Below, piece by piece: positions 1,345 through 64,000 of a DNA stretch of 64,000 bases (positions are counted from its first letter, which is position 1; each line of letters starts with the position of its first letter). Below the pieces are notes generated by a model, which was not told the origin of the DNA, searched no databases, and was given only the letters and a program-made list of their open reading frames with translations. Location of the stretch: assembly GCA_038064575.1 (NCBI GenBank), contig JBBTST010000008.1, positions 2,458-66,457 on the forward strand, written 5' to 3'. A program made the translations under genes and the position numbers. This DNA comes from Patescibacteria group bacterium. Lineage in GTDB: Bacteria > Patescibacteriota > WWE3 > UBA101185 > 2-01-FULL-41-18.

Positions 1345-2970
1345 ATGGGAAAAAGAAGCCAACATAAAAAACCAATGGGTTTAAACCCTACAGACCCGGA
1401 ATCAAACAGTAAAAGCCTAAGAGTCCTGATAACAAACAACAAAGCTACTATTGTCTTTCTAGTTCTTTTCACCACTTTAATCTATCTAAATTCTTTAAAT
1501 GGACAGTTTGTATCAGATGACATCCCAAGCTTCAGAGATTATGACCTTGTCAGAAGCATTCCCAAAGCTTTTAGCTTCCTTATGGTTCAAAAAGCCCTGC
1601 ACGCTGTTTCCTACAGCTTGTTTGGTCTAAATCCTATCCCTCTTCACATACTTTCCCTCATCTCACACATTTTAGCGGTGCTTTTGCTATTTATTCTCAC
1701 CAGTCTTTTATTTAACAAAAAAACAGCCTCTTTTGCCTCTTTTCTTTTTGCCAGCCACCCTGTAAATACTGAGGCGGTTGCGTGGATCTCAGGGTTTAAT
1801 TACATTGCAAATACTATTGCCTTTTTATTAACGGCTATATTTTTTACAAAATTCAGACAGACCAATATGAATAAATACTATATTGCCTCCCTTACAATTT
1901 ACATTTTAACAGCCGCCTTTATAAGACTTCCATGGTTGATAACCACGCCTTTTCTCCTTCTGATTCTGGACTTCTCCCTTAGTCATTTGAAAAAACAACA
2001 AATCAGCAAAACCTTTCTATATCAAACTTTGTTCTTTATGACAGCCTTACTCTTTACAATCTTCATGAAAAGCTCAATTTCAGACAGAATTTATTATATG
2101 CAGGCAAGCCCTCAAACAGGTTTTGCTTACAAACCCCCTTATTTTATTAATATCCCTTTTATAATCTTTACTCAACTTAAAACTCTCCTTTTTCCTTTAC
2201 AGCTCACACTCTATTACCCAAATGTAACCCTGACCAAATTCTCTTTTCTTGCCATGATATTAACAACTGTTGCTTACCCTATTTCCGCCCTCTTTATATA
2301 TATAAAAAACAAACTCCTTGGAGGAGTTTTCCTTATGATTATTGCATCTCAGATCATAACTTATAGTCCTATATCTCTAGCCTCATCTTTAGCAGATAGA
2401 TATTTATATCTGGCAACTGTGCCTTTTTCTATTTTCATAGCTTTTCTAATCAATAAAATTGGCTACAAAAACAAAGCTGCTGCTTATTCGATTTGTACAA
2501 TTGTCATAGTTTTGTACTCACTAAGAACCGTTTTAAGAAACTCCGATTGGCATTCTTCTGAGACACTTGCCGTATCTCATGCTCAAATTAACAAGCAGGA
2601 TTACAAAGTGCTAAGTGATTTGGCTCAGGTCTATGCTGAAAAAAAAGCTTACTCACAGGCCATTTATTATTATGAGAAGGCAAGAGCCATAAACGCGGAT
2701 ATTGCAGAAGGAAGATATAATTTGGGCGTTGTGTATTATATGCTTGGGAGAGTAACTGAAGCTGAAAGTGAGTTTAGAGCGGCCGTAAAGCTAAACCCAA
2801 ACCTAAGCGAAGCATCTTACAATCTGGCTGTAATTGAAAATGACAAAGGTAATACCAAAGAAGCTATTGAACTTTTGATTTTGTCCTTAAAAGCAAATCC
2901 TAATTCTCCAAAAGCAAAGGAGGCACTGGAGGTGATCAGTTCAAAGGAAAAGCTAAAAGAGGGGAATTAA
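1345..2970 (+). CDS. Polytopic membrane protein with C-terminal TPR repeats (TMTC/DUF1736-like putative GT-C glycosyltransferase)
   Basis: About 9 predicted TM helices. Conserved 'SHPVNTEAVAWISGFNY' (the HPxHTEAV motif typical of TMTC/DUF1736). Three or more TPR units at the C-terminus (YNLGVVYYMLGRVTEAESEF...). Confidence 0.6.
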   Translation: MGKRSQHKKPMGLNPTDPESNSKSLRVLITNNKATIVFLVLFTTLIYLNSLNGQFVSDDIPSFRDYDLVRSIPKAFSFLMVQKALHAVSYSLFGLNPIPLHILSLISHILAVLLLFILTSLLFNKKTASFASFLFASHPVNTEAVAWISGFNYIANTIAFLLTAIFFTKFRQTNMNKYYIASLTIYILTAAFIRLPWLITTPFLLLILDFSLSHLKKQQISKTFLYQTLFFMTALLFTIFMKSSISDRIYYMQASPQTGFAYKPPYFINIPFIIFTQLKTLLFPLQLTLYYPNVTLTKFSFLAMILTTVAYPISALFIYIKNKLLGGVFLMIIASQIITYSPISLASSLADRYLYLATVPFSIFIAFLINKIGYKNKAAAYSICTIVIVLYSLRTVLRNSDWHSSETLAVSHAQINKQDYKVLSDLAQVYAEKKAYSQAIYYYEKARAINADIAEGRYNLGVVYYMLGRVTEAESEFRAAVKLNPNLSEASYNLAVIENDKGNTKEAIELLILSLKANPNSPKAKEALEVISSKEKLKEGN

Positions 2971-4727
2971 TGAAACTTACAAAAGCTAACAAAAAGTTTA
3001 TCAGGGAGAACAAAGGCTTCATGAGCCCTGATCAATTTTCACTCAAACTTGGAGTGCCCAAAGAGGCTGTTGTACACTATCTTGGCAAAAGCCCGGACCA
3101 AATCGGAACTTTAAGTAAAATTGAAGAAATCACCTCGGATTTCAGGCCAACTTCTCTACTTGCCATTCTAACTTTTATCAAAGGAAGAAGAGCCCATGTA
3201 CTTCTACTGCTTATACTGTGTTTTTTTGTCTATTTTAATTCACTAAATGGAGAGATGGTCTCAGATGATATAACAGGCTTTAAAGAAAACCCTGAGATAA
3301 GAAGCATCCCGCATGTTTTGGCAAACTTAGGTTTTTGGGGAATTCAGCAGCTCATTCAGTCAATAGCTTACAACCTCTTTGGCACAAATCAAATCCCTCT
3401 ACACGCAATTTCTTTGCTCGCGCACATGACGGCAACCGTCCTGGTTTTTATCTTTGTTTCTATTCTGCTAAACAGTAAACTAGGCTTTGTTTCTTCACTT
3501 TTGTTTGCGGTTTTCCCTGTAAATTCAGAGGCGGTAGCTTGGATTTCAGGCTTAAACTATATTTTAACTGCACTGGGCTTAATAATAACGTCTATCCTAT
3601 TTCTGATTTACAAAAATAACAACAAACCGGCGTATTTATGGCTGACCGGAATAAGTTTCTTTTTAACTTATGCTGTTGTAAAGAACCCTTTTTCTTTGAC
3701 TATTCCACCAATAATATTAATCCTTGCTGTTTTTTTTAGAAAACAGACCAACCTTAAAAAGCTAATACTTGAAATGCTTCCCATAGCAGTAGTTTCTACC
3801 CTTATTCTGATTTTGATGTTGGGCAGAATCCAGGGCAGGCTTACCTTTATGGAGGAGCTTGACAAGGAAACTCCATCAAAAGGCCCTTCCTATCTTATGG
3901 GCCTGCCCTACATTACTTCAACCTACATAGAACTTTACCTTATGCCTCTTAATCTGAGCCTGCTTCATGAAGAAACATTCATAAGTCTTAGCGGGTATAT
4001 ATATATGATTGTGATTTCCATAGTATTTCTTATAACCTTTATAATCCTGATTATTAAGAAGAAAAGAATAGAGGCGGGTCTTTTATTAATCATTCTATCT
4101 TCACTTTTGCCCTCATTTAGCCCCGTAAGAGTTGCGTGGTTTGTGGCTGAAAGGTATATGTATGTAGGTTCCATGGCTTTAATGACTCTTTATGCTTACT
4201 TACTTTCAAAGCTTGATACTAAAACTAAAAATAAGGACATTGGCAATTTTATTATTGTACTGCTCGTGTGCCTGTTTTCAATTAGAACCGCAATAAGAAA
4301 CTATGACTGGAGCACTCAAAAAAGGCTGTGGGTTGCAACAGAAAGAACCAACCCCAACAGCCCTAAAGTACACATCAATTTAGGAGATATTTACATGAGA
4401 GGTGGAGACTTAGACAAGGCTTTAACTGAATTCAACAAAGCATTGGTTCTGCGCCCTAATTACTCGGATGCGGCCCATAATATTGGCACTGTTTATCTTG
4501 CAAAAAAGGACTATGATAACGCCCAAAAATACTTTGCTCTGTCTTTAAAGTTTGATCCTAATATGTACCTATCCCACTACAAAAACGGAGTGATAGAGTA
4601 CAGAAAGGGCAATTTGGATAATGCCAGAAAAGAAATGTATCAGGTGTTAGAAAAAGATCCTAGCTTTGAACCTGCCAAAAACATCCTTATAAGTATAGAG
4701 AAGGAGCAAAAAAACCAAAGTCCATAA
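2970..4727 (+). CDS. Paralogous TPR-tailed membrane protein (TMTC/DUF1736-like)
   Basis: Shares 'LNSLNGEMVSDDI', 'AVFPVNSEAVAWISGLNY' and the same architecture with the upstream gene. ATGA start/stop overlap at 2967-2970 indicates a tandem paralog pair. Confidence 0.6.
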   Translation: MKLTKANKKFIRENKGFMSPDQFSLKLGVPKEAVVHYLGKSPDQIGTLSKIEEITSDFRPTSLLAILTFIKGRRAHVLLLLILCFFVYFNSLNGEMVSDDITGFKENPEIRSIPHVLANLGFWGIQQLIQSIAYNLFGTNQIPLHAISLLAHMTATVLVFIFVSILLNSKLGFVSSLLFAVFPVNSEAVAWISGLNYILTALGLIITSILFLIYKNNNKPAYLWLTGISFFLTYAVVKNPFSLTIPPIILILAVFFRKQTNLKKLILEMLPIAVVSTLILILMLGRIQGRLTFMEELDKETPSKGPSYLMGLPYITSTYIELYLMPLNLSLLHEETFISLSGYIYMIVISIVFLITFIILIIKKKRIEAGLLLIILSSLLPSFSPVRVAWFVAERYMYVGSMALMTLYAYLLSKLDTKTKNKDIGNFIIVLLVCLFSIRTAIRNYDWSTQKRLWVATERTNPNSPKVHINLGDIYMRGGDLDKALTEFNKALVLRPNYSDAAHNIGTVYLAKKDYDNAQKYFALSLKFDPNMYLSHYKNGVIEYRKGNLDNARKEMYQVLEKDPSFEPAKNILISIEKEQKNQSP

Positions 4728-14290: not shown

Positions 14291-14596
14291 TTAAGCGTTT
14301 CTGCTTGCTTTATAGCAGTTTTCACACAAAACCGGCTTGTCTCCTTTTGGAACAAAAGGAACCTGAGCCTCACCACCACAGTTTGAACATGTGGTTGTGT
14401 ACATTTCACGCTCTCTTCTAGGACCACCAAATCCACCTCTTCCACCTCTTACTTCATTCTTTCTTGCCTGTCTACATTCTTTACATCTTTTAGGTTCGTT
14501 TGAAAAACCTTTCTGAGCGTAAAATTCCTGCTCGGCAGCCGTAAATACAAACTGCTTACCACAGGATTCGCAAACTAATGTTTTATCTTGAAACAT
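14291..14596 (-). CDS. Small zinc-ribbon protein (CxxC...F.F...EQEFY..KGF...PKRCKECR; zf-trcl-like, inferred)
   Basis: 'CESCGKQFVFTAAEQEFYAQKGFSNEPKRCKECR' plus a second 'CSNCGG...CENC' ribbon. A Gly/Arg-rich linker lies between them. Confidence 0.55.
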   Translation of the reverse strand: MFQDKTLVCESCGKQFVFTAAEQEFYAQKGFSNEPKRCKECRQARKNEVRGGRGGFGGPRREREMYTTTCSNCGGEAQVPFVPKGDKPVLCENCYKASRNA

Positions 14597-14761
14597 GTGT
14601 TAATAATTCACCTCCTTTGACAATTCCCCGCTCTTCCTTAAAAAACCGCCGGGAAATGCCAAAGGCAAATCTAAGGGTTAAGAATATCCGGGTAAATATA
14701 CTGCGTGGAGTATAACACAAAACTAGCCGGGCAGACAAAACCCACTTCAAACAGTAAAGAT

Positions 14762-34147: not shown

Positions 34148-34223
34148 TGGTGGACCTGGGGGGACTCAAACCCCCCACCTCCGCAATGCGAATGCGGCGC
34201 TCTATCAGATGAGCTACAGGCCC
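34148..34223 (-). tRNA. tRNA-Ala (anticodon CGC), CCA encoded
   Basis: Reverse complement GGGCCTGTAGCTCATCTGATAGAGCGCCGCATTCGCATTGCGGAGGTGGGGGGTTTGAGTCCCCCCAGGTCCACCA. G3:U70 pair, T-loop GTTTGAGTCC, anticodon loop TTCGCAT. Confidence 0.85.
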
Positions 34224-35808: not shown

Positions 35809-35885
35809 TGGTGGACCCTAGGGGACTCGAACCCCTCACCTCTTCCATGCCATGGAAGCGCTCTAGCCAGATGAGCTAAGGGCCC
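35809..35885 (-). tRNA. tRNA-Ala (anticodon GGC), CCA encoded
   Basis: Reverse complement GGGCCCTTAGCTCATCTGGCTAGAGCGCTTCCATGGCATGGAAGAGGTGAGGGGTTCGAGTCCCCTAGGGTCCACCA. G3:U70, anticodon loop ATGGCAT. Confidence 0.85.
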
Positions 35886-35972: not shown

Positions 35973-38332
<2,360 letters not shown>

Positions 38333-38453
38333 AAGTGTCCAAAGTCAGGACTGAGGGCAATTATAACTCAACCTATTCAAAGTTGAAACTTACTCAAAAA
38401 CACATCTTAGCTTAATGAATCAAGCCAAACCAACCACCTTAGCAGCCGTGAAG

Positions 38454-39869
38454 CTATTGACCTTGAGCAAGAGTTTGTAAAAACTCTTCATTGTTTTGCG
38501 TTTTTCTCATTCTCTCCACCACAAGTTGAGTAGCTTCCCTCTCATCCAAAAGATCAACCATTCTTCTAAGTCTGAAAACTGCTTCCAGTGTCTTTTTCTC
38601 ATATAAGAGTTCTTCATGCCTTGTTGAGGACTTCTTGATATCAAGAGCTGGGTAAATTCTTCTTTCTGCCAGAGTTCTATCAAGGTGCAGTTCCATGTTA
38701 CCAGTTCCCTTAAACTCCTCATAAACCAGATCGTCCATCCTTGAGCCTGTATCCACTAAAGCTGTAGCAATAATTGTTAAACTACCGGCAGATTCAAAGT
38801 TTCTGGCAGCTCCAAAAAAGTGCTTTGGAGGGTACAGTGCGGAAGGATCAAAACCGCCTGATAGCGTTCTTCCTGAAGGCGGAACCACCAGGTTATAAGC
38901 TCTTGCCAAACGGGTTAGAGAATCCATTAGAATAACAACATCTTTTCCGGCTTCAGCCAGACGCTTTGCTCTTTCCAAAACTATCTCAGCAGCTCTTGTT
39001 TGGGCTTCAGCTGCTTCATCAAAATTACTGGCAAACACTTCCCCATTAACGCTTCTTTGCATATCTGTTACCTCTTCAGGTCTTTCTCCAATTAAAGCAA
39101 CCATCAAAACTACCTCGGGATGATTTGTGGTAATACCATTTGCAATGTCCTTAAGAAGCCAGGTTTTACCGGCTTTAGGAGGCGCAACTATCATAGAGCG
39201 TTGTCCCTTACCAACAGGAGAAATAAGATCAATCAACCTAGTTGACAGAATATCTTTAGCTGTCTCAAGTCTAAGCCAAGAATTTGGAAAAACAGGTATG
39301 AGCTTTTCAAATAAGGGTCTTTTGCGGGCAGCCTCCGGATCCATGTCTTCAACTTTTTCCACCCTTAACAAAGACAGGTATCTTTCATTTTCTTTGGGCG
39401 GTCTTGCAAGCCCTTCTACAATATCCCCCATCCTTAGAGCAAAACGCCTGATTTGGGACTGGCTTATATACACGTCTTTTGGAAGATTCTCTTTTGCATT
39501 TTTATCTTCCTGTCTTAAAACACCATAATCGGGCAAAATCTCAAGTACTCCTTTTACCGGAACCGTTTCACCTAAAAAGCCTTCCGGTCCAAAGTCAGAG
39601 CCCTGCATATAACCATACCCACCGTTTTGCCCCTGATTTGTTGAGGCATCCCCATTTTGGCCTTGGATTGGCTGATAACCTTGCCCACCTTGTGATCCCT
39701 GAGGAGCCTGAAAGCCTTGTGAACCCTGGGAAAAGTCTTTAGGCTCTCTTGACCCTCTGGTATCTCTTGCATAACCGCCTGAACTTGAGGAGTCACCATT
39801 TCTGGAATAGGACCTTGAAGGTTGATACTCTTTGGGTGAGTTGGATCTATACATAATATTACTTGGCAA
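38454..39869 (-). CDS. rho: Transcription termination factor Rho with Q/G/Y-rich N-terminal insertion
   Basis: Walker A 'APPKAGKTWLLKDIA', RNA-binding/Q-loop regions, 'RVEKVEDMDPE' OB-fold. Residues ~40-100 are low-complexity Q/G/N/Y-rich. Confidence 0.9.
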   Translation of the reverse strand: MPSNIMYRSNSPKEYQPSRSYSRNGDSSSSGGYARDTRGSREPKDFSQGSQGFQAPQGSQGGQGYQPIQGQNGDASTNQGQNGGYGYMQGSDFGPEGFLGETVPVKGVLEILPDYGVLRQEDKNAKENLPKDVYISQSQIRRFALRMGDIVEGLARPPKENERYLSLLRVEKVEDMDPEAARKRPLFEKLIPVFPNSWLRLETAKDILSTRLIDLISPVGKGQRSMIVAPPKAGKTWLLKDIANGITTNHPEVVLMVALIGERPEEVTDMQRSVNGEVFASNFDEAAEAQTRAAEIVLERAKRLAEAGKDVVILMDSLTRLARAYNLVVPPSGRTLSGGFDPSALYPPKHFFGAARNFESAGSLTIIATALVDTGSRMDDLVYEEFKGTGNMELHLDRTLAERRIYPALDIKKSSTRHEELLYEKKTLEAVFRLRRMVDLLDEREATQLVVERMRKTQNNEEFLQTLAQGQ

Positions 39870-40140
39870 ATTGCCACAATTAAATAAACTTAAATTTTAG
39901 CTTTAGACTGAAGTTTCATAAGAAAAACCAACGCAAACCGCAAATACCAAAAACAGCCTTAATGTTTTGATCTGTAATGATTAAAAAATTGCATGTTGGA
40001 CTTTGGATTCAGAAAGATGAATAACTTCTTCTTAAGGTAAAGCCTATCTTAAATGAAAAACCCTGTCAACTGAGAAGTGTAATGGTGAACCAAGCAAGTG
40101 TTGAGGAAGACAAAATTTGTACCTTGGCGCCTAAATACGC

Positions 40141-40180
40141 AAAAAACTCGGGATAAAACACTGTTTCTTCCCGAGTTTTG
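40141..40180 (-). terminator. Intrinsic terminator downstream of tRNA-Arg and the tRNA-like element
   Basis: AAAAAACTCGGG-ataaaacactgtttcttc-CCGAGTTTT. It reads hairpin + U-run on both strands. Confidence 0.5.
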
Positions 40181-40185
40181 TAAAT

Positions 40186-40344
40186 TTGGTCTGATGGACT
40201 CGAACCATCTTGTGATTTGAGCCTCAATTGGCACCACCCCACTTAAAAGTTTGGAAGTGGCTCCTTTCCTAATTGGGATCTGCCGGCATTATCCGCTACT
40301 TACTTAAAAGTAGTAAACACAAAGCGTTAGCAGATCAGACCAAG
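40186..40344 (-). ncRNA. ~158-nt tRNA-like structured element (10-bp terminal helix TTGGTCTGAT/ATCAGACCAA plus canonical T-arm GATGGTTCGAGTCCATC); function unknown
   Basis: Perfect 10-bp inverted repeat at both ends. T stem-loop sits directly 5' of the 3' strand of the terminal helix. No D-arm or U8. It lies between tRNA-Arg and a terminator on the same strand. Confidence 0.3.
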
Positions 40345-40417
40345 TACCCTCGACAGGACTCGAACCTGTAACGCGGAGCTTAGAAGTCTCCCGCTCTATC
40401 CATTGAGCTACAAGGGC
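40345..40417 (-). tRNA. tRNA-Arg (anticodon TCT), CCA not encoded
   Basis: Reverse complement GCCCTTGTAGCTCAATGGATAGAGCGGGAGACTTCTAAGCTCCGCGTTACAGGTTCGAGTCCTGTCGAGGGTA. Anticodon loop CTTCTAA as in E. coli argU. Confidence 0.8.
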
Positions 40418-40439
40418 CCTGTTAAAAAGTTTCCCTTTC

Positions 40440-40928
40440 CTAGCGATACCGAATAATCTTTCTGGTGTTAGCAAGATATAAAATCACGTCTCTACCTGCC
40501 AACACCCTGTTAAAGTTATCAACATCCACTCTTCTGGCAAGTCCCAGAGCAAGTGAGAATTTGGGTGGAAGTTCATCAGATTGCAAACCCCCCAACCTAA
40601 TGAGAATAACTTCTAGCACACCTTCTGAGAGTGCCTCCCAGATATCATCTGGCAGATAATATTGCCTCTTGAAAAGCACCACAGGGTTCAAAGACAATTC
40701 TGCCCTACATCTTTGAAGGGTTCTGGCCAGAGCTTCCAACTTCTTTCCCAAGGAGAAGTGATTTTCTCCCAGGTCAATTGATAAAAGGAGGTCAATTACC
40801 CTTTTAAGCTGTTCGGGCTTTGGCAAAGGCTTACTACTAACCTTTGGTTTACCTAACTTAAACCCAGAACTTCTTGTAGGGTGATAAAACTCTTCAGCTA
40901 AATAGTCTAAACTAGGGATGCCATACAT
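40440..40928 (-). CDS. Hypothetical protein
   Basis: 162-aa ORF with no recognisable motif. Confidence 0.4.
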   Translation of the reverse strand: MYGIPSLDYLAEEFYHPTRSSGFKLGKPKVSSKPLPKPEQLKRVIDLLLSIDLGENHFSLGKKLEALARTLQRCRAELSLNPVVLFKRQYYLPDDIWEALSEGVLEVILIRLGGLQSDELPPKFSLALGLARRVDVDNFNRVLAGRDVILYLANTRKIIRYR

Positions 40929-41236
40929 TTTGACTTCTCCTTTCTTTTTGAGATATTGTAATATTAGAAACTTATAGGGTATTTTGCAAGTGGAAACGGG
41001 TTAATAAAAGTGTATGTAAAAACTATCAGGGGAGATAGTCACTGCCCCCAGCTACCTCCCCTAACAATGATCCTATAAAGTTAGAACGGCAATGTCAATA
41101 ACTTTGTACACACCCTTTACAGATATAGAGGCAATATATTACTCGCTTGAAACATTTGAACCGACTTTACAACACTTTAATTTATTAATTAAGCAACGGG
41201 TAGTAAAACTTGTAACAAAAATGATAAGTAATTTAG

Positions 41237-41902
41237 TTATAGTTTCTTAGCTTTTATCAAAAGCCGCTTGCTATAGTCTTTTTCTACAGGACTCCATACG
41301 CCGCCACACGTGATAACAGTCAAAATTGGGTCTTTTGTTTCCTCATATGCTTTTAGAACCGCGCCGGGGTCATTCATGGAAACATAAGAGACCTCATAAA
41401 TCTCAAACTTAATAAGTCTTTGTGTAGAATCTTCAACCTCTATCAAATCCCCGGGTTCCAGTTTAACCAGCTTGTAAAAAACTGCGGGAGAGCCGCCTAC
41501 CCTATCATAATGCCCGGCTAGAATCGCGTTGCCCTCTTCTCCGGCTTTCGGTCCGTTCTTATACCAGCCTACCTCATTGTAGTTTTTGGGAGTTTCAAGC
41601 CTGCCATCTTTATCAACACCTACTTCGACCACAGGCGCCTCTTTGAGACCGATTTTGGAAATTGAAAGTTTTTTGGGCTCAAAGAAGATAGGCTTCAACA
41701 GAGAGGCAAAGATAGAAGGGTTTGAATCCTGGGCCACAGGAGCGTCTGAGGTAGTTATACCTAAAATAGCCTTAGTATTAAAGTAAAGTAACGCAAAAGA
41801 GGCGGACACAAGGATTCCGGTTAGAATCACAAGCATTCCGCCCCTCCTGCCTGAAAACAAGTTCATATATAAGCTTTGTAAGCCGGAACAGTCCGAACTC
41901 AC
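41237..41902 (-). CDS. Sortase (transpeptidase)
   Basis: N-terminal TM anchor. 'ILAGHYDR' (His), 'LTVITCGG' (TLxTC Cys), '...SKRLLIKA' (Arg). Confidence 0.7.
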   Translation of the reverse strand: MSSDCSGLQSLYMNLFSGRRGGMLVILTGILVSASFALLYFNTKAILGITTSDAPVAQDSNPSIFASLLKPIFFEPKKLSISKIGLKEAPVVEVGVDKDGRLETPKNYNEVGWYKNGPKAGEEGNAILAGHYDRVGGSPAVFYKLVKLEPGDLIEVEDSTQRLIKFEIYEVSYVSMNDPGAVLKAYEETKDPILTVITCGGVWSPVEKDYSKRLLIKAKKL

Positions 41903-41905
41903 AAA

Positions 41906-42589
41906 TTAGGAAACGATTCTCTTTAGAAAAAGCCCGGTAAGCACGAGTCCGACACCATAAATGGTAAAGAGTACCGTATCCTCGCTTCCTGTCTTTGGAA
42001 GCTCTTTTAATCCGTACCCATAGCATACTGTAGCTGTATCGCTCGCGACAGTTTTAAGTTTACCATCCTCTTCATCTTTCAATTTTACCTCGTTTACAAC
42101 ACATTTCTGAACCCCAGTCTGGTACTCGATATCCTTAACTCTAGCAGTAATACAAAAAACCTTGACCGCGTTTCCAACACCGCTACAGCCATCTACCTTT
42201 GTGTCGTCACCGTTATCAATAACTTCAATCACCTCGGTTAGGGAACCTGTAAGCTTTTCAAGTTCCTTAGGGAGGCTGTCAATAACCTCAAGGTCCTTAC
42301 CATCAACATCACCTATGTTAGTTACGACGATTCTAAAGGTTAAAACGTCACCTTTCTTAACACCCTCAACCTTGTCCTCAAACTTATCGGCACCGTTCAC
42401 CTTAACCTTCTTTTCTATTCTAAATCCACGATCGCACTCTTTTCCCCCACCATAGGTTCTATCGCATGAGTTGGCAAAGGATAGAATGGTAAAAGAGTAT
42501 ACTGTAGCAACAATGCCTATAGCAAAGATTAGAGCTAAAACTATTAATTTTTTGGTCAATAAAGTAGTCATAAATAGTCCTTTTACCAA
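41906..42589 (-). CDS. LPXTG cell-wall-anchored surface protein (sortase substrate), DUF11-like repeat
   Basis: Signal/TM at N-terminus. C-terminus 'LPKTGSEDTVLFTIYGVGLVLTGLFLKR' (LPKTG + TM + basic tail). Confidence 0.7.
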   Translation of the reverse strand: MVKGLFMTTLLTKKLIVLALIFAIGIVATVYSFTILSFANSCDRTYGGGKECDRGFRIEKKVKVNGADKFEDKVEGVKKGDVLTFRIVVTNIGDVDGKDLEVIDSLPKELEKLTGSLTEVIEVIDNGDDTKVDGCSGVGNAVKVFCITARVKDIEYQTGVQKCVVNEVKLKDEEDGKLKTVASDTATVCYGYGLKELPKTGSEDTVLFTIYGVGLVLTGLFLKRIVS

Positions 42590-42729
42590 ACTAAAATAAC
42601 AAGGGAATTAGCTTCACCTAAAGGAAAACCGGAATCTCTAGGAAAAGCAAATCCCCTTGCTAATTACAGCTATTTGCAGGATGTATTTTGGACAGAGGGA
42701 TTATATAGGATAAAAGCTAACTCGTCAAG

Positions 42730-45700
42730 CTATAGGTTATAACGGTTTTTTTGGGTCCGTGACCTCAAAGGACTTGCTATTTTTCCAGAAAGGGTTAGAA
42801 AGAACCCTCCTATAAGAAAAAAGCCTAAAACCTCCAAAATCTGGGGCCAGAAAAAGATCAATAAATATCTGGTTTTGCCATTAACCAACCACCCATTCGA
42901 CCAATTATTTACAACCACATGTTTAAAAGGCGGCCAAGTTAACCACCCCTGTTCAAAAGATTGATTCAGTGTTACTAAACCCTCTACACCCTGCTCATCA
43001 GATGAAGACAATAAAACCAAATAAAATGGATTAAAGCCCATTACATTCTCAACTCCTGCTAAATTACTTATTGAATCATTATTTCCTATATTAATCGATT
43101 GAATCCATGAAAAAGGAACAGGATAAAATTTAATAGATTTTAAGTGATTCACTGAAGGTACAAGCCCAAAAGACAAATTGTCCACATCAACACCATATCC
43201 ATATTTATCACCATCTAGGGTCGGAAGTATAAAATATTCTTTAGTAAAAGATCTTGTAGGCAATAAAGTAGTGTAGAGGTCACAACGTTTTGTAATATAG
43301 TTGACCACACAAAGTCTGAGGGGCAACCCAGAAACATTTTTGGCTTCAATTTCTATTAGATAAGTTCTAAGTTGAGATAGATCAGCAATAGGATAATGAT
43401 CACAGGTAAATCCATTAGTGACAGAATATTCCACATAACCTTCATGAAAGACTTTATCAAAATCTTTAGGTACCCCATAACTGCATGGAGTGGACTTGTT
43501 TGATTTATCAAAAACAGGTAAAGTAGCCCCAAAACGCGAAAGCCTAGAATTTACGTTAAGTGTGCCATCTGTAACTATTGAAGCAGAAGTTGGAAAAGAA
43601 GCTAGCTTTTCAATCTCATTCTTTGAAAGCAAAACTGTAAATTCAGGCAAATAATATGACACAGTTAAATCCCTATATATCCCTGTTATATCCTCATTCT
43701 CCCCAACTCCATCTAACATTAACCTTAAAAAGTAAGAATCAGATTGATCTAAATCTACAAATGTCCTATAAATCCAATGCGAATTGTGAGTTCTAAATGA
43801 GTCCGTAATACATCTTCCCGTGATACTATTTAAGATACAAAGAAGTGGCTCCTTGTCCCCCTCAAACTCATAAGCAATTTCTACAATTGATTTACCCTTA
43901 ACTGAAGGCACACCTTTACTCAATTTATTAAGTGGGATTGTGAGACAGGATTTTACATTCCTAGCAAAAAGGCTAGTGCCTGAAGCATCAGATTTAAAGC
44001 CAAAAGATTGGTTTGTGTCAACAAAACTACAACTCTCAGGCTTAATAGCTAAATCTGAGAAGACAACTTTATGATCTTTGATAAACTTGCTACCAAAAAA
44101 GGCTAGTGAAACATCCTCCCCAAGCATAAGTTCCGCTTCTTCCGGTCTTTTCAAAATAGACTCAAGGGAAATTATAGTTTCCCTAACATTTAACAGATAG
44201 TTCTTATTCTGAGAGCTACTTATTGGAACTTTTAAACTGTTACCATTAACCATGCCTGAAACGCTTGGCAGGCCTGGAGTGATTGTAAGACTCGAACTTT
44301 CAGAATCTCGAAAAGCAGCCAAAGTAACAGGCAAAACTTTTTCAAAAACCGAATAAGCGGGTAAATTTATCTTCTGGTTATTATTCAAAGATCTAGCCTC
44401 AAACTTATAAGAACCCGCAAATGCTGAAAACAACTCCGTATTTAGCGATTCGTTAATTGTAAAGATGTTTCTAAAAGGGTAAGACGCTGAATTCTTGGTA
44501 TTTTGATCATCTGAGACATAGTCCCCTCTTATGTAGGCTGTATCCAAATAAGATCTGGACATTTCAGGCTTCACAGAATAAAAAGAGTCAGGTGTTTCAA
44601 CTAAATCTCTTTTTTTATTAACTTTATAGACCCTTAACCCACCACCAAAATCTCTCTCAAGTACAATTGAGGCTTTATCAAGCATAGATTTAAGAACATT
44701 CAAATTTAGGGCTGTCTTATCCACACCTGGAGAAAAAACACTTTCATCTACAAGAACCCAAGAAACCTGATACTTATCTAAAACACGTTCAAACAGGTTA
44801 GAATCTCCTTTATATAATGCATAGGAAATCTCTCTATAATACTGTTCATTTCGAGGGTCCCACCTATCAAATTCTCTATCTAATAAGGGTTGCTTTATGC
44901 CAAACCATAAAAACCCAGCTCCCTGATAACCAAGCATGTTGTTTTCATTCCAGTTGTAATAAACCCAACCCCAGAAGGAATGCACAGGAAAGTTTGCTAC
45001 ACGTTCAGTATCTCCTTGTTCACTAAAGAACTTAAACATATCAAAATATCTTTGGGGTATAGTCACACGCATAGTAGGGCTTACTAAACCACCCCTAAAA
45101 ACTGGAAACATAAAATAGCCAAACAAAAACAAATAAATTAAGGAATAAGAAATGAATGCAAAATTAGAAAACTTACCCCGGAACTCAAACAAGTTTGTTA
45201 AACGGGCGTGAAAAATACCAAAAAAGGTTGAGTAGGAAAAAGCAAGTAAAATAGAAAACTTAGTAAAAGGCAGGCGGAAAGCCTCCCTAAATAGGGAAAC
45301 ATTACTTTGGAAAAAACCAAAAACTGAACCCAGAGGCCCATTTGTGGTCAACAAAAAAAATACTGAGAAAAGCATCAGTGCCAAAAATGGAAGACTGACT
45401 TTGTCCCTTTTAAAAAAGGTATAAACTGCTCCAAGAATAATTAAAAAGAAGAAATAATAACCAATCTTTAAGACAAAAGGCTCTTTCTGGTGAGAAACCC
45501 ATTCATCTAACAAATTTCCAAAATTTCCGTTTCCCACATGCTCTCCCCAACTAAATAGAAAACCCTTTAAAATGGCCAAATCTTGAAAATTCCCGTATGT
45601 TTTATTTTGTAAGAATGCTTCTTGGGAAAAGAGATAGTGAATTTTAGACTCCTGAACTTGTTTTCCATGACCTAATACAAAATAAAGGTTTGGAAGAAGC

Positions 45701-46455
45701 CAAAAAGAATTTAGTAAAAAAGTTAGTAACAGTATGTAAAAAACGTTTTTTAACCCTTGAACACTAAAATCGCCTAACAGGAGAATTAGTAAATATAAGA
45801 CAAGGGCACCAAAAAATACAAACCATAGAGTAGAAGTATGAGCCATAGAAGTCCCAAGAAGTGAAAATGCAGAAAAGAGAAGAACATTTCTTTTAGACCT
45901 GTTTTTAAAAAGGTTGTAGGAACAATAAAAAAGCCATGGCAGCAAGGCGTAATGAACAGCAAACATTTCAAGGGGTACATAAAATTGCTGTAGAGTACCC
46001 AAATTAAGCAAATAAAAGAGGGCACCTAAAAAAGCTCCTACTTTTGAAGACCTCTCCAACAGACCTTCTAATACAACTCTTTTCAAAAGTACATATACAC
46101 CCAAAGGCCCAACTAAAAGGCATAAAAAAAAGAATACGTACCTTACCAGTGAAAGTGGAAGAAATATATCCAACAAAAAAAGTACTGGTAGCCGTGTAAT
46201 TTCAGAGGCATGGGCTTGAGTGGCAACTGCCCCCAAACCCTGATGAGGTTGCCAAGCACCAAATACCACTCTTTTCAAATAGGAGGAGTAATTGAATTCG
46301 GGATGAAGTGTATCCCATCCCGTAAGAAAGGTTTTAGCCTCATAATTTCTAACCGAAATAAAAAGACCCAATAAAATCAAGGTCAAAACGGGTAAGTGGT
46401 TTTTTATAAAGTTAAAAATCTTTTCTTTCATACTCTCTTGCTTCAAAAGAAGCAT
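42730..46455 (-). CDS. Very large polytopic membrane protein; GT-C-like glycosyltransferase candidate (AftD/DUF3367-like N-terminus) with ~800-aa extracytoplasmic C-terminal region
   Basis: 1241 aa, more than 14 TM helices. 'GWDTLHPEFNYSSYLKRVVFGAWQPHQGLG' near the N-terminus resembles the DUF3367 signature (from memory). Confidence 0.45.
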   Translation of the reverse strand: MLLLKQESMKEKIFNFIKNHLPVLTLILLGLFISVRNYEAKTFLTGWDTLHPEFNYSSYLKRVVFGAWQPHQGLGAVATQAHASEITRLPVLFLLDIFLPLSLVRYVFFFLCLLVGPLGVYVLLKRVVLEGLLERSSKVGAFLGALFYLLNLGTLQQFYVPLEMFAVHYALLPWLFYCSYNLFKNRSKRNVLLFSAFSLLGTSMAHTSTLWFVFFGALVLYLLILLLGDFSVQGLKNVFYILLLTFLLNSFWLLPNLYFVLGHGKQVQESKIHYLFSQEAFLQNKTYGNFQDLAILKGFLFSWGEHVGNGNFGNLLDEWVSHQKEPFVLKIGYYFFFLIILGAVYTFFKRDKVSLPFLALMLFSVFFLLTTNGPLGSVFGFFQSNVSLFREAFRLPFTKFSILLAFSYSTFFGIFHARLTNLFEFRGKFSNFAFISYSLIYLFLFGYFMFPVFRGGLVSPTMRVTIPQRYFDMFKFFSEQGDTERVANFPVHSFWGWVYYNWNENNMLGYQGAGFLWFGIKQPLLDREFDRWDPRNEQYYREISYALYKGDSNLFERVLDKYQVSWVLVDESVFSPGVDKTALNLNVLKSMLDKASIVLERDFGGGLRVYKVNKKRDLVETPDSFYSVKPEMSRSYLDTAYIRGDYVSDDQNTKNSASYPFRNIFTINESLNTELFSAFAGSYKFEARSLNNNQKINLPAYSVFEKVLPVTLAAFRDSESSSLTITPGLPSVSGMVNGNSLKVPISSSQNKNYLLNVRETIISLESILKRPEEAELMLGEDVSLAFFGSKFIKDHKVVFSDLAIKPESCSFVDTNQSFGFKSDASGTSLFARNVKSCLTIPLNKLSKGVPSVKGKSIVEIAYEFEGDKEPLLCILNSITGRCITDSFRTHNSHWIYRTFVDLDQSDSYFLRLMLDGVGENEDITGIYRDLTVSYYLPEFTVLLSKNEIEKLASFPTSASIVTDGTLNVNSRLSRFGATLPVFDKSNKSTPCSYGVPKDFDKVFHEGYVEYSVTNGFTCDHYPIADLSQLRTYLIEIEAKNVSGLPLRLCVVNYITKRCDLYTTLLPTRSFTKEYFILPTLDGDKYGYGVDVDNLSFGLVPSVNHLKSIKFYPVPFSWIQSINIGNNDSISNLAGVENVMGFNPFYLVLLSSSDEQGVEGLVTLNQSFEQGWLTWPPFKHVVVNNWSNGWLVNGKTRYLLIFFWPQILEVLGFFLIGGFFLTLSGKIASPLRSRTQKNRYNL

Positions 46456-62543: not shown

Positions 62544-62665
62544 AGTCCCGGCGACGCCCTATTCTCACATGGAGTTGCCCCCACACTACCTTCGGCACTG
62601 GTGGTCTTAACTTCTCTGTTCGGGATGGGAAGAGGTGTTACCCCACCGCTATTGTCACCAGGACT
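62544..62665 (-). rRNA. 5S rRNA
   Basis: Reverse complement ...CCTGGTGACAATAGCGGTGGGGTAACACCTCTTCCCATCCCGAACAGAGAAGTTAAGACCACCAGTGCCGAAGGTAGTGTGGGG... aligns to bacterial 5S helices. Confidence 0.85.
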
Positions 62666-62985
62666 TTGCCAACAAAATTCAAAACTAATTATTATCCTAA
62701 ACAATTCTCAAGGTAAACCCGCGCCAAACGCGGGCTGCAATCATAAAAAGAAAAACATTCATTAGTACGGCTTAGCTGAAACCATTACTGGTCTTACACC
62801 TGCCGCCTATCAACCTCGTAGTCTCCAAGGGAATGTTAACGTCTTGCGACGTATAGGTTCTAATCTTGGGGTGTGCTTCGTACTTAGATGCTTTCAGTGC
62901 TTATCACGACCGAATGTAGCTACCCAGCCATGCTCCTGGCGGAACAACTGGAACACTAGAGATTCGTCCGCTCCGGTCCTCTCGT

Positions 62986-63743
62986 CAACTATTCTTCTAT
63001 CACTAGAAGGTTAGACTATATCTTCACCCAATTTATAACTTTATGGAAACTAAATTGGGGTTGGCGTATTACCTGTTTATTTCAACAAGTCCTCTGTGTA
63101 AAAGTGCGACTCTTACAAAGAAAGTCGTTACGGGGTCAGACCTAAAATTTGATATAACTCGCTTTTTGATCTCTTATATCTTGTCGAGTAGTTTTGCCTT
63201 TGAATCTCAAGCATATTACTCACAAGAAATTTAAGATCATTTTCAGACAGGTGTTTCTTTGTATTTAGTAAAGCACAGGAGGATAATAATACCTCCGCCT
63301 GAACCTTTTTAAACCGTAGATAGGGGACTAAAAGCTGGAGTATTGTATAAGTACTTCCATAACCATTAATCCTTAATTCTGTCATACCATCATTTCTCTG
63401 GGATAGGTAACCAACTCCAAGAATATGCTTAATCCATTTGAGATATTTTTCATGAGATGTTTTTTGATAAAAACATATAGTACTCATGAATCTAATACCC
63501 TTTTTAGAATCAGCACGCTTCTTTAATTGGAGCATTAAGCTACCATCTCCGTCAAGAAAACCAGCGATATATGAATAATCAATTTCAGATCGACTTCCCA
63601 CGGTATTATCTTATCAGACTTCGGTCCTCAAGTGGACCAATTAAACGTTAGCTTCAGGACCGAACACTAACATTAATCAGAAAGACTTCACCGTTATTAG
63701 CCAAATTGTCATCGCAGATTACTCCGCGAAGTAGCAATTTCTT
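62986..63743 (-). mobile_element. Group I intron in the 23S rRNA sarcin-ricin loop region (about E. coli U2656/A2657)
   Basis: The 5' exon ends ...CUCCUAGU (U before the splice site). The intron ends in G. Joined exons give CUCCUAGUACGAGAGGACC, identical to the conserved 23S sequence. The intron contains the LAGLIDADG ORF. Confidence 0.6.
63128..63601 (-). CDS. LAGLIDADG homing endonuclease (single-motif) encoded within the intron
   Basis: 'YIAGFLDGDGSLMLQL' is a LAGLIDADG motif. 157 aa. Confidence 0.8.
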   Translation of the reverse strand: MGSRSEIDYSYIAGFLDGDGSLMLQLKKRADSKKGIRFMSTICFYQKTSHEKYLKWIKHILGVGYLSQRNDGMTELRINGYGSTYTILQLLVPYLRFKKVQAEVLLSSCALLNTKKHLSENDLKFLVSNMLEIQRQNYSTRYKRSKSELYQILGLTP

Positions 63744-64000
63744 ACTAGGAGCAGCTCCCCTCAAAACCTTGCGCCCGTTGTGGATAGAGACCGACATTTT
63801 TGTTACTTCTTACTTAGTAAAAGTAAGCGGTTAACCATTTCTAGTTTTGGTTAAACTCTCCCAATCGCTTGGGGGATCCGACCATATCTTCATAGTTGTT
63901 AAGGTCATAGTAAATACTCTGTTGTGTTCGTATTTAAACTTTAACAAAATGTTTAGCGTATGGCCTGTGAGGATTTTCATACTAAAAGCATGAATCTTTC

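Follow-up and report, generated by a model that had tools for sequence, protein, structure and literature searches.

A putative tRNA-shelled small RNA gene behind tRNA-Arg(UCU) in a groundwater member of the Patescibacteria

What is encoded by a segment of 158 nucleotides (nt) that directly follows a transfer RNA (tRNA) gene, has the two ends of a tRNA, and yet has an interior unrecognisable as tRNA? The segment in question (the element) lies behind tRNA-Arg(TCT) on the minus strand of a 64,000-nt stretch of DNA (the window; contig JBBTST010000008.1 of assembly GCA_038064575.1). Its source is a member of the Patescibacteria (candidate division WWE3-like) from Hainich groundwater, whose closest Rho proteins are labelled WWE3. 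A preliminary description, made from the letters alone, had noted the tRNA-like ends and proposed as candidates a reduced transfer-messenger RNA (tmRNA), an intron-containing or permuted tRNA, a tRNA-derived regulatory RNA, or a miniature inverted-repeat transposable element (MITE). Our analysis confirms the observation and partly supports the interpretation. Judged from its sequence, the element is a genuine and well-formed, if putative, RNA gene on a tRNA shell, without a match in known models and so far found in one lineage. The explanation that we favour, and to which we give about an even chance, is a putative gene for a small non-decoding RNA in which two long arms replace the D- and anticodon arms, and which would be matured by tRNA-processing enzymes. 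Three independent assemblies carry the element sequence without any difference, so it is not an assembly artefact.

Both ARAGORN and Rfam bore out the tRNA-Arg(TCT) gene, and the sequence shows the adjoining segment at the coordinates given before. The parts are listed below in their order along the minus strand, with nt counted from the first base of the element.

40344-40417, minus strand: tRNA-Arg(TCT), canonical (ARAGORN; Rfam RF00005, 59.2 bits), ending 1 nt before the element
40186-40343, minus strand: the element, 158 nt, separated from tRNA-Arg(TCT) by one spacer base (C)
40337-40343, minus strand: 5' strand of the acceptor-type helix, UUGGUCU, nt 1-7 (pair probabilities 0.42-1.0; descriptor match)
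40277-40336, minus strand: arm 1, nt 8-67, an 8-bp helix GAUCUGCU/GGCAGAUC leading up to a CUACUU/AAGUAG hairpin (folds)
40265-40276, minus strand: mostly unpaired spacer, nt 68-79, holding the start of the purine run AGGAAAGGAG (constrained fold)
40230-40264, minus strand: arm 2, nt 80-114, a hairpin with CCACUU/AAGUGG or, in an alternative register, GCCACUUC/GGGGUGGU (folds)
40210-40229, minus strand: 20-nt linker, nt 115-134, which includes GGCUCAAAUCA (minimum free energy (MFE) fold)
40193-40209, minus strand: T-arm GAUGG-UUCGAGU-CCAUC, nt 135-151 (sequence and descriptor)
40186-40192, minus strand: 3' strand of the acceptor-type helix, AGACCAA, nt 152-158 (sequence and descriptor)

The shell is flawless. 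All 12 pairs of the 7-bp helix and the adjacent 5-bp T stem are Watson-Crick, the T-loop is canonical, and an 11-mer of the T-arm, GGTTCGAGTCC, is shared letter for letter with the tRNA-Arg and the tRNA-Ala(GGC) of the window. The T stem-loop was found directly before the 3' helix strand, at 40209-40193, as had been reported. The reported lack of a D-arm, of U8 (position 8 is G) and of an encoded CCA also holds in the sequence; the discriminator position is A at 40185, with no CCA after it. The 10-bp terminal repeat of the preliminary description, TTGGTCTGAT (40343-40334)/ATCAGACCAA (40195-40186), is indeed present, but it cannot form in full alongside a full T stem because the bases ATC are common to both. 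Terminal helix and T stem can instead be divided as 7/5, 8/4, 9/3 or 10/2.

Such a shell is rarely produced by chance. A descriptor consisting of a 5-bp T stem, a TTCRANN loop and an adjacent 7-bp acceptor gave 0.2 matches per 64 kb in 40 shuffled windows used as control (0.125 for spans >100 nt), while in the real window it returned the element, tRNA-Ala(GGC) and one weak AT-rich match at 14486-14645. The 158-mer is more stable than its shuffles (-53.9 kcal/mol, z = -4.1), and the 282-nt transcript folds as three separate modules, namely the tRNA, the element and the terminator. Based on the descriptor rate in shuffles, the stability of the fold and the modular folding, the feature is real and not due to chance.

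The tRNA-like layout of acceptor, arm 1, linker, arm 2, linker and T-arm is that of the fold with acceptor and T-arm imposed. Arm 1 begins straight after the acceptor strand, at the place of the D-arm in a tRNA, and the inner 5 pairs (nt 10-14) of its helix GAUCUGCU (nt 8-15)/GGCAGAUC (nt 60-67) have probabilities of 0.73-1.0. The two internal hairpins already described, CTACTT/AAGTAG (40313-40308/40301-40296) and CCACTT/AAGTGG (40260-40255/40244-40239), are both present. Most of the purine run AGGAAAGGAG lies in the spacer of nt 68-79 and the remainder extends into arm 2. By eye, GAAAGGAG (40261-40268, minus strand) is perfectly complementary, over its 8 nt, to the usual 16S 3' tail CUCCUUUC, the host's own tail lying outside the window. 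A small open reading frame (ORF) led by GAAAGGAG as a Shine-Dalgarno sequence was considered and rejected, there being no start codon at Shine-Dalgarno distance.

Could the element be a miniature tmRNA-like ribosome-rescue RNA? Like the tRNA-like domain of tmRNA, it has an acceptor helix on a T-arm, a large insert and no anticodon arm, and nt 6-20 loosely resemble the tmRNA 5' region (by eye). The preliminary description had seen no plausible tag frame. A 17-codon frame from GCG to UAA, ADNAGRSQLGKEPLPNF*, does exist and ends within hairpin 2, but it is unlike a tmRNA tag, its end lacking the usual hydrophobic or alanine residues. The P2-like pairing proposed earlier fares similarly: TTGTG (40322-40318) and CACAA (40214-40210) are present, but their pairing is disfavoured by 8.6 kcal/mol, since a fold with UUGUG/CACAA reaches -41.9 kcal/mol compared to -50.5 kcal/mol with the 8-bp helix GAUCUGCU/GGCAGAUC, which had been overlooked. 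In addition, the pair at 3:70 is G-C (UUGGUCU/AGACCAA) and not the G-U alanine identity pair; the element is shorter than tmRNA by ~100 nt or more; and 158 nt leave no space for the pseudoknots PK1-PK4. No Rfam model of the tmRNA clan (tmRNA, alpha, beta, cyano or mitochondrial), nor any other Rfam family, matched the element at E<=10, and the tmRNA mode of ARAGORN returned nothing on it, even at the 80% threshold. Moreover, tmRNA is broadly conserved in bacteria, unlike the element, which is not conserved in the related loci examined. The reduced tmRNA candidate thus drops out, and we give next to no credence to a tag-encoding rescue RNA here. A literature search for tmRNA or tRNA-like RNAs in the candidate phyla radiation (CPR)/Patescibacteria found nothing relevant.

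A functional decoding tRNA with unconventional insertions, either a tRNA-Stop(UUA) with a 65-nt intron or an allo-tRNA-like molecule with an 8/4 split, is very improbable as well. It draws on a terminal helix that can be extended to 8-10 bp as in 8/4 and 9/3 tRNAs, and on a call by ARAGORN at the 80% threshold in intron mode, 'tRNA-Stop(tta)' with a 65-nt intron. That call places the intron at a non-canonical position and includes a D stem with mismatches, and the same relaxed settings gave 19, 13 and 5 calls in 9.2, 5.8 and 2.0 kb of mostly coding DNA of relatives; at this rate, ~2 false calls per kb, no weight can be given to it. With default settings, ARAGORN with and without intron mode is silent on the element, and RF00005 matches tRNA-Arg alone. 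When every single-segment deletion of the element was passed to default ARAGORN, 26 calls resulted, compared to 0-377 (median ~70) for ten shuffled interiors, so an interrupted tRNA is not recovered better than from shuffles. The gene is not permuted either, because its 5' and 3' acceptor strands stand in normal order. Long tRNAs with insertions do occur in phage tRNA clusters (PMC6784885), but these mostly retain a canonical D-arm and the element does not. A group I intron was rejected on two grounds: the insert is too short, and the Intron_gpI model, although it detects the 23S introns of the window, gave no match on the element. We know of no bacterial mechanism for the removal of a 65-nt intron that is not of group I. 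Neither the intron-containing nor the permuted tRNA of the preliminary description is therefore retained.

The perfect 10-bp terminal inverted repeat, situated in a lineage-specific block of a variable region, would also suit the end or remnant of a mobile element (a MITE, an att-site scar or a retron-like non-coding RNA), with the repeat resembling an acceptor helix by chance. We consider this highly unlikely. The element occurs in one copy in 64 kb and in none of the related loci, and its flanks, TAC and ATT, show no target-site duplication, so that within the window and these loci the MITE candidate finds no support. No reverse transcriptase, transposase or integrase is encoded within ~4 kb on either side, and a retron, considered for the inverted repeat, was rejected for lack of a reverse transcriptase nearby. 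Such an origin would also leave the T-loop beside the repeat unexplained.

What survives from the list of candidates is a tRNA-derived or tRNA-like RNA, and a precedent can be named for it. The species 1 and species 2 RNAs of phage T4 have been known for decades. Expression is documented for both, RNAC and RNAD, while reviews list their roles as unknown (PMC3014915; PMC9697503). In T4 (NC_000866), rnaD (species 2 RNA, 119 nt) starts 1 nt after tRNA-Arg(UCU), and rnaC (species 1 RNA, 139 nt, 70908-71046) comes next. The rnaC fold has a 7-bp terminal stem containing two U-U mismatches, and its first arm, of ~70 nt, begins immediately behind the 5' strand. An A-rich linker leads to a 10-bp hairpin; the canonical T-arm, CCGGG-UUCGAAU-CCCGG, borders directly on the 3' strand, and a D-arm is lacking. 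BLAST found rnaC homologues in 748 phage records, almost all of them Tevenvirinae-type phages of enterobacteria, and in the consensus structure of seven aligned Tevenvirinae sequences 22 of the 44 pairs, some of them in the terminal stem, show compensatory changes. Rfam holds no rnaC family. In most phage records (e.g., OQ599310.1 and NC_054919.1) rnaC is unannotated or tagged as tRNA-Lys or as a hypothetical protein. In Karamvirus, Moonvirus and Kagamiyamavirus (loci L215-L220) it is not found behind tRNA-Arg but has tRNA-Trp/Phe on one side and tRNA-Gly/Trp on the other.

The element and rnaC have much in common. Both belong to a tRNA transcription unit, downstream of tRNA-Arg(UCU); both have a 7-bp terminal stem with an adjacent 5-bp T-arm and neither a D-arm nor an anticodon arm; and both continue with a long first arm, a single-stranded linker and a second hairpin, which for the element come from single-sequence folding. 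They are of similar size (139 vs 158 nt), neither encodes CCA, and neither is in Rfam. They differ in that rnaC has two conserved U-U mismatches in a stem that is perfect in the element, in that T4 has rnaD between the tRNA and rnaC, in the linker before the T-arm (1 nt in rnaC vs 20 nt in the element), and in their location in a phage genome vs a Patescibacteria chromosome. Sequence and profile similarity is limited to the generic tRNA shell. A covariance model built from the rnaC alignment (R2) and applied unfiltered to the whole window put the element in first place and aligned it end to end, with 13.0 bits (E = 0.21). With default filters, R2 found nothing higher in ~1 Mb of DNA from other bacteria and metagenomes, where its best match had 11.5 bits.

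A number of results weigh against a functional small RNA of this design, and they concern the rnaC match, the fold and the search for relatives. R2 also gives 10-18 bits to ordinary tRNAs and to unrelated long tRNA-like elements of phage tRNA clusters, and a lone T-arm already reaches 9.5 bits. In the reciprocal test, rnaC reaches 9.4 bits, below real tRNAs. Because 13 bits fall within the tRNA range and the reciprocal score is low, the rnaC match reflects the generic tRNA shell. Architecture and setting are common to the element and rnaC, but these scores do not establish common descent. As to the fold, the energy model prefers over the T-arm a competing hairpin, GGCUCAAAUCA/UGGUUCGAGUC (10 of 11 bp), which pairs the linker GGCUCAAAUCA with the 5' half and loop of the T-arm; the MFE is -53.9 kcal/mol vs -50.5 kcal/mol for the tRNA-like fold, and the T stem has an ensemble probability of 0.

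The search for relatives adds to these points. Loci anchored on rho were drawn from GTDB genomes, and in the nine contigs of closest relatives that were examined (Rho 75-86% identical) tRNA-Arg and the element are missing upstream of rho; the region varies among relatives and holds tRNA-Asn, toxin-antitoxin genes or small ORFs instead. The covarying homologues for which the preliminary description had looked to relatives were accordingly not found at related rho loci. A metagenome scan with GGTTCRANTCCNNNAGACCAA (T-loop and 3' acceptor strand) gave at least 118 matches, mostly coding and due to chance, with no element-like sequence among the matches listed. Two viral scans with the 5' 20-mer and the 3' 21-mer of the element gave 0 matches, and BLAST of phage and plasmid collections returned nothing. 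The same was true for nhmmer and blastn against the collected loci and for a single-sequence covariance model of the element (R1) over Patescibacteria and viral loci. The absence of homologues thus applies to the syntenic site and to near-identical sequence in the collections. Because no homologue was found, no helix of the element is supported by covariation.

Two rival explanations gain or lose from these data. One is that the element truly belongs to the T4 rnaC family, and that it and tRNA-Arg(UCU) came from phages or are shared with them. The same place after tRNA-Arg(UCU), the same architecture, the top R2 rank in the window and similar 5' ends (UCGGUUCGA in rnaC vs UUGGUCUGA in the element) would fit such an origin. 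In contrast, the bit scores in both directions remain at the level of generic tRNA, the conserved motifs of rnaC (GAGGA after the stem and the AGCGUCAACU loop) are not in the element, the neighbouring orphan gene ORF162 has no phage relatives, and rnaC homologues are nearly restricted to the enterobacterial phages named above. We therefore regard membership as quite improbable.

The other is a non-functional relic. Recombination, or a mobile element that inserted and was then excised, would have replaced the middle of a former tRNA gene or of a tandem partial duplicate and spared just the acceptor strands and the T-arm; the remains would be transcribed passively, owing to their place between tRNA-Arg and the terminator. 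This reading deserves serious weight even though we think it unlikely. The element is known from a single species-level lineage and is missing from the syntenic site in all relatives examined, it sits in a variable region upstream of rho next to a strict orphan gene, and it has neither a D-arm nor an anticodon arm. But random decay should harm shell and interior alike, whereas here the shell is perfect and the interior is not recognisable as tRNA. The interior is itself strongly structured (the z-score given above), and no one excision restores a tRNA beyond shuffled controls. Furthermore, the D-arm-less design is not just debris, because it is conserved with covariation in T4-like phages.

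The surroundings of the element bear on how such an RNA would be made. On the minus strand the gene order is sortase, ORF162, tRNA-Arg(TCT), element, terminator, rho, M23 peptidase and obg. The features around the tRNA and the element are as follows.

41070-41098, minus strand: second promoter-like site, upstream of ORF162 (consensus match only)
40440-40928, minus strand: ORF162, an orphan of 162 aa that stops 22 nt before tRNA-Arg
40473-40502, minus strand: promoter-like site TTGGCA-18-TATCTT, 56 nt upstream of tRNA-Arg (consensus match only)
40137-40179, minus strand: intrinsic terminator, a 16-bp hairpin followed by UUUUUU (folding energy and shuffles)

The terminator, which the preliminary description had placed downstream of the element, is well supported, as its hairpin (40179-40143) and U-run have a folding energy of -18.9 kcal/mol (z = -5.4). 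ORF162 is possibly the first gene of a transcription unit with tRNA-Arg and the element. No relative of it was found in a search of 1.84 billion representatives; Pfam, PHROGs, PADLOC and a viral scan were all uninformative, as was its AlphaFold model (predicted local distance difference test score of 40). Its sole relative, 88% identical, comes from the same aquifer, on a 665-nt contig (locus L087). This sister lineage keeps the order of ORF162 and then tRNA-Arg, and its contig stops within the tRNA.

In the explanation that we favour, a non-decoding RNA on a tRNA shell, the element would be co-transcribed with tRNA-Arg(UCU), and possibly with ORF162 too, up to its own intrinsic terminator. 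RNase P accepts acceptor/T-arm minihelices. It would recognise the 12-bp acceptor/T-arm stack of the element and cut at U1 (40343), and the same cut would free tRNA-Arg with an end of A73-C, in which the spacer C could serve as C74. The terminator tail would be trimmed after A159 as in a CCA-less tRNA precursor, with CCA addition being possible. The product would be a stable RNA of ~158-162 nt, whose tRNA-like ends would give it defined termini and protection and whose working parts would be the arms and the exposed purine-rich linker. Anatomy and context are observed; the processing steps are all inferred, on the strength of known RNase P substrates and of T4 as a precedent.

The same arrangement could also serve the tRNA alone. 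The element may be a cis-acting processing module that gives tRNA-Arg a clean 3' end (A73-C) and shields it from 3' exonucleases and the terminator, the released RNA being functionless. The spacing is exactly 1 nt and the base is C; tRNA-Arg encodes no CCA, unlike both tRNA-Ala genes of the window (34148-34223 and 35809-35885, minus strand), in which the 3' CCA is encoded; and Patescibacteria have reduced RNA-processing repertoires. Against this, a minihelix of 24-35 nt would suffice for the purpose and a structured interior of 120 nt would be left over, and relatives do without the element at this locus. Overall, a purely cis-acting role seems improbable to us.

Whether RNAs of comparable design occur elsewhere was examined in viral contigs, where we looked for loci that have tRNA-Arg(UCU) and, 135-165 nt beyond, a second T-loop. 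Among the 120 loci so obtained, the second T-loop lay outside any ARAGORN tRNA in 17. One of these, on an IMG/VR viral contig (locus L322, 10814-10960, plus strand), is a 147-nt element between tRNA-Arg(UCU) and tRNA-Met. Like the element of the window, it combines a perfect 7-bp acceptor helix with an adjacent T-arm and has no canonical D-arm and no ARAGORN call; it contains four internal hairpins. It differs in that its sequence is unrelated (no R1 match), in that it begins 22 nt and not 1 nt after the tRNA, and in its location in a viral tRNA array. Together with T4 species 1 RNA and the L322 element, the element of the window may be the first cellular (Patescibacteria) member of an uncatalogued class of D-arm-less tRNA-shell RNAs in tRNA operons that share a function dependent on tRNA handling, a proposal that we make tentatively and consider distinctly unlikely as it stands. 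Such RNAs may act as decoys for tRNA-targeting nucleases or tRNA-binding enzymes, or as CCA-tagged scaffolds that present their arms.

Other tRNA-like RNAs resemble the element less closely. The rtT RNA of E. coli is a small stable RNA that is freed from the distal part of the tyrT operon by tRNA-processing enzymes and carries a tRNA 3' part. It is a series of copies of the 3' end of the tRNA before it, unlike the shell of the element, which is neither a copy of tRNA-Arg nor repeated. In another IMG/VR viral contig (L285), tandem ~75-nt repeats follow tRNA-Arg(TCT), each ending in its T-arm and 3' acceptor strand (GTTGTGGGTTCGACTCCCACTAGGGGTA); these appear reminiscent of the tyrT/rtT repeats. 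The bacterial Y RNA-like YrlA and the eukaryotic mascRNA/MALAT1 modules are non-decoding RNAs that imitate tRNA for recognition by tRNA-processing or tRNA-binding factors, and the tRNA mimic of YrlA is apical, not terminal. The YrlA model was rejected at 13.8 bits (gathering score 69), most of the match falling on the real tRNA-Arg; the seven largest minus-strand ORFs from 35973 to 46455 include no Ro/TROVE (rsr) gene.

Lak megaphages have long tRNAs with 'enigmatic introns' (PMC6784885). Long genes that look like them (L228, L285, L299 and L304) are, like the element, over-long tRNA-shaped genes in tRNA clusters that are missed by standard tools; unlike the element, they mostly keep a D-arm and apparently an anticodon arm, and excision could give a tRNA. 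A 154-nt tRNA-shaped gene with the ends GGTGGGC...GCCCGCC (L127, 2842-2995, minus strand, JGI Ga0316218_1008817; also L200 and L175) has a class-II D-arm and a second, internal T-arm GTGGTTCGAGTCCAC, and resembles the 'tRNA within a tRNA intron' of Lak megaphages. In two further IMG/VR viral contigs (L243 and L292), a recurring CCAAGTTYTAGGNTASTTNCAGCAA (e.g., CCAAGTTTTAGGCTACTTTCAGCAA) follows tRNA genes and runs into a lone T-arm, and it may be another kind of non-canonical tRNA-like unit.

Two other sets of observations were made along the way. At the end of the window, only the last ~250 nt of the 23S rRNA (62755-63004; model positions 2656-2912) are contiguous with the 5S rRNA (62546-62662). 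Directly upstream of this 23S part are two sub-threshold group I intron matches, at 62993-63127 and 63858-64000 (minus strand), with 39 and 30.9 bits (E of 5e-8 and 1e-5). As these matches adjoin the contiguous 3' part, the 23S gene is interrupted by one or more group I introns. Group I introns in 23S have been reported for CPR bacteria. Two unusual tRNAs were also found in a WWE3 relative (L088), neither of them reported by Rfam as tRNA at the gathering score. The first (2330-2417, minus strand), between a DUF11/CLIPPER protein and a sortase, is an 88-nt tRNA called tRNA-Val(AAC) by ARAGORN. Its acceptor measures 8 bp and its T stem 4 bp, the variable arm is long and the GCCA end is encoded, so that its shape resembles that of an allo-tRNA or tRNA-Sec; its anticodon region ACUUCAACAAAGU includes UCA. 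The second (4325-4400, plus strand), called tRNA-Asn(GTT), has G for U33 and an imperfect T stem and lies in the variable region upstream of rho, beside an RF-1-domain protein.

What would the element mean for its host and for RNAs of this kind? The kind itself is known, from the T4 species 1-type RNAs of tRNA operons, and what appears to be new here, judging by sequence, is the unmatched 158-nt version. If the element is a relic instead, it represents ordinary genome wear and is of little consequence. A chromosomal element of rnaC-type design, on the other hand, would show that the design recurs outside T-even phages, here in a bacterium with a minimal genome, and the element in the unrelated viral contig (L322) would be a third example. 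The arrangement also suggests an economical maturation of a CCA-less tRNA, in which a single RNase P cut would set the 3' terminus of tRNA-Arg and, at the same time, the 5' terminus of the RNA behind it. Because none of these RNAs is in Rfam and tRNA finders miss or misname them, the design is worth a dedicated search.

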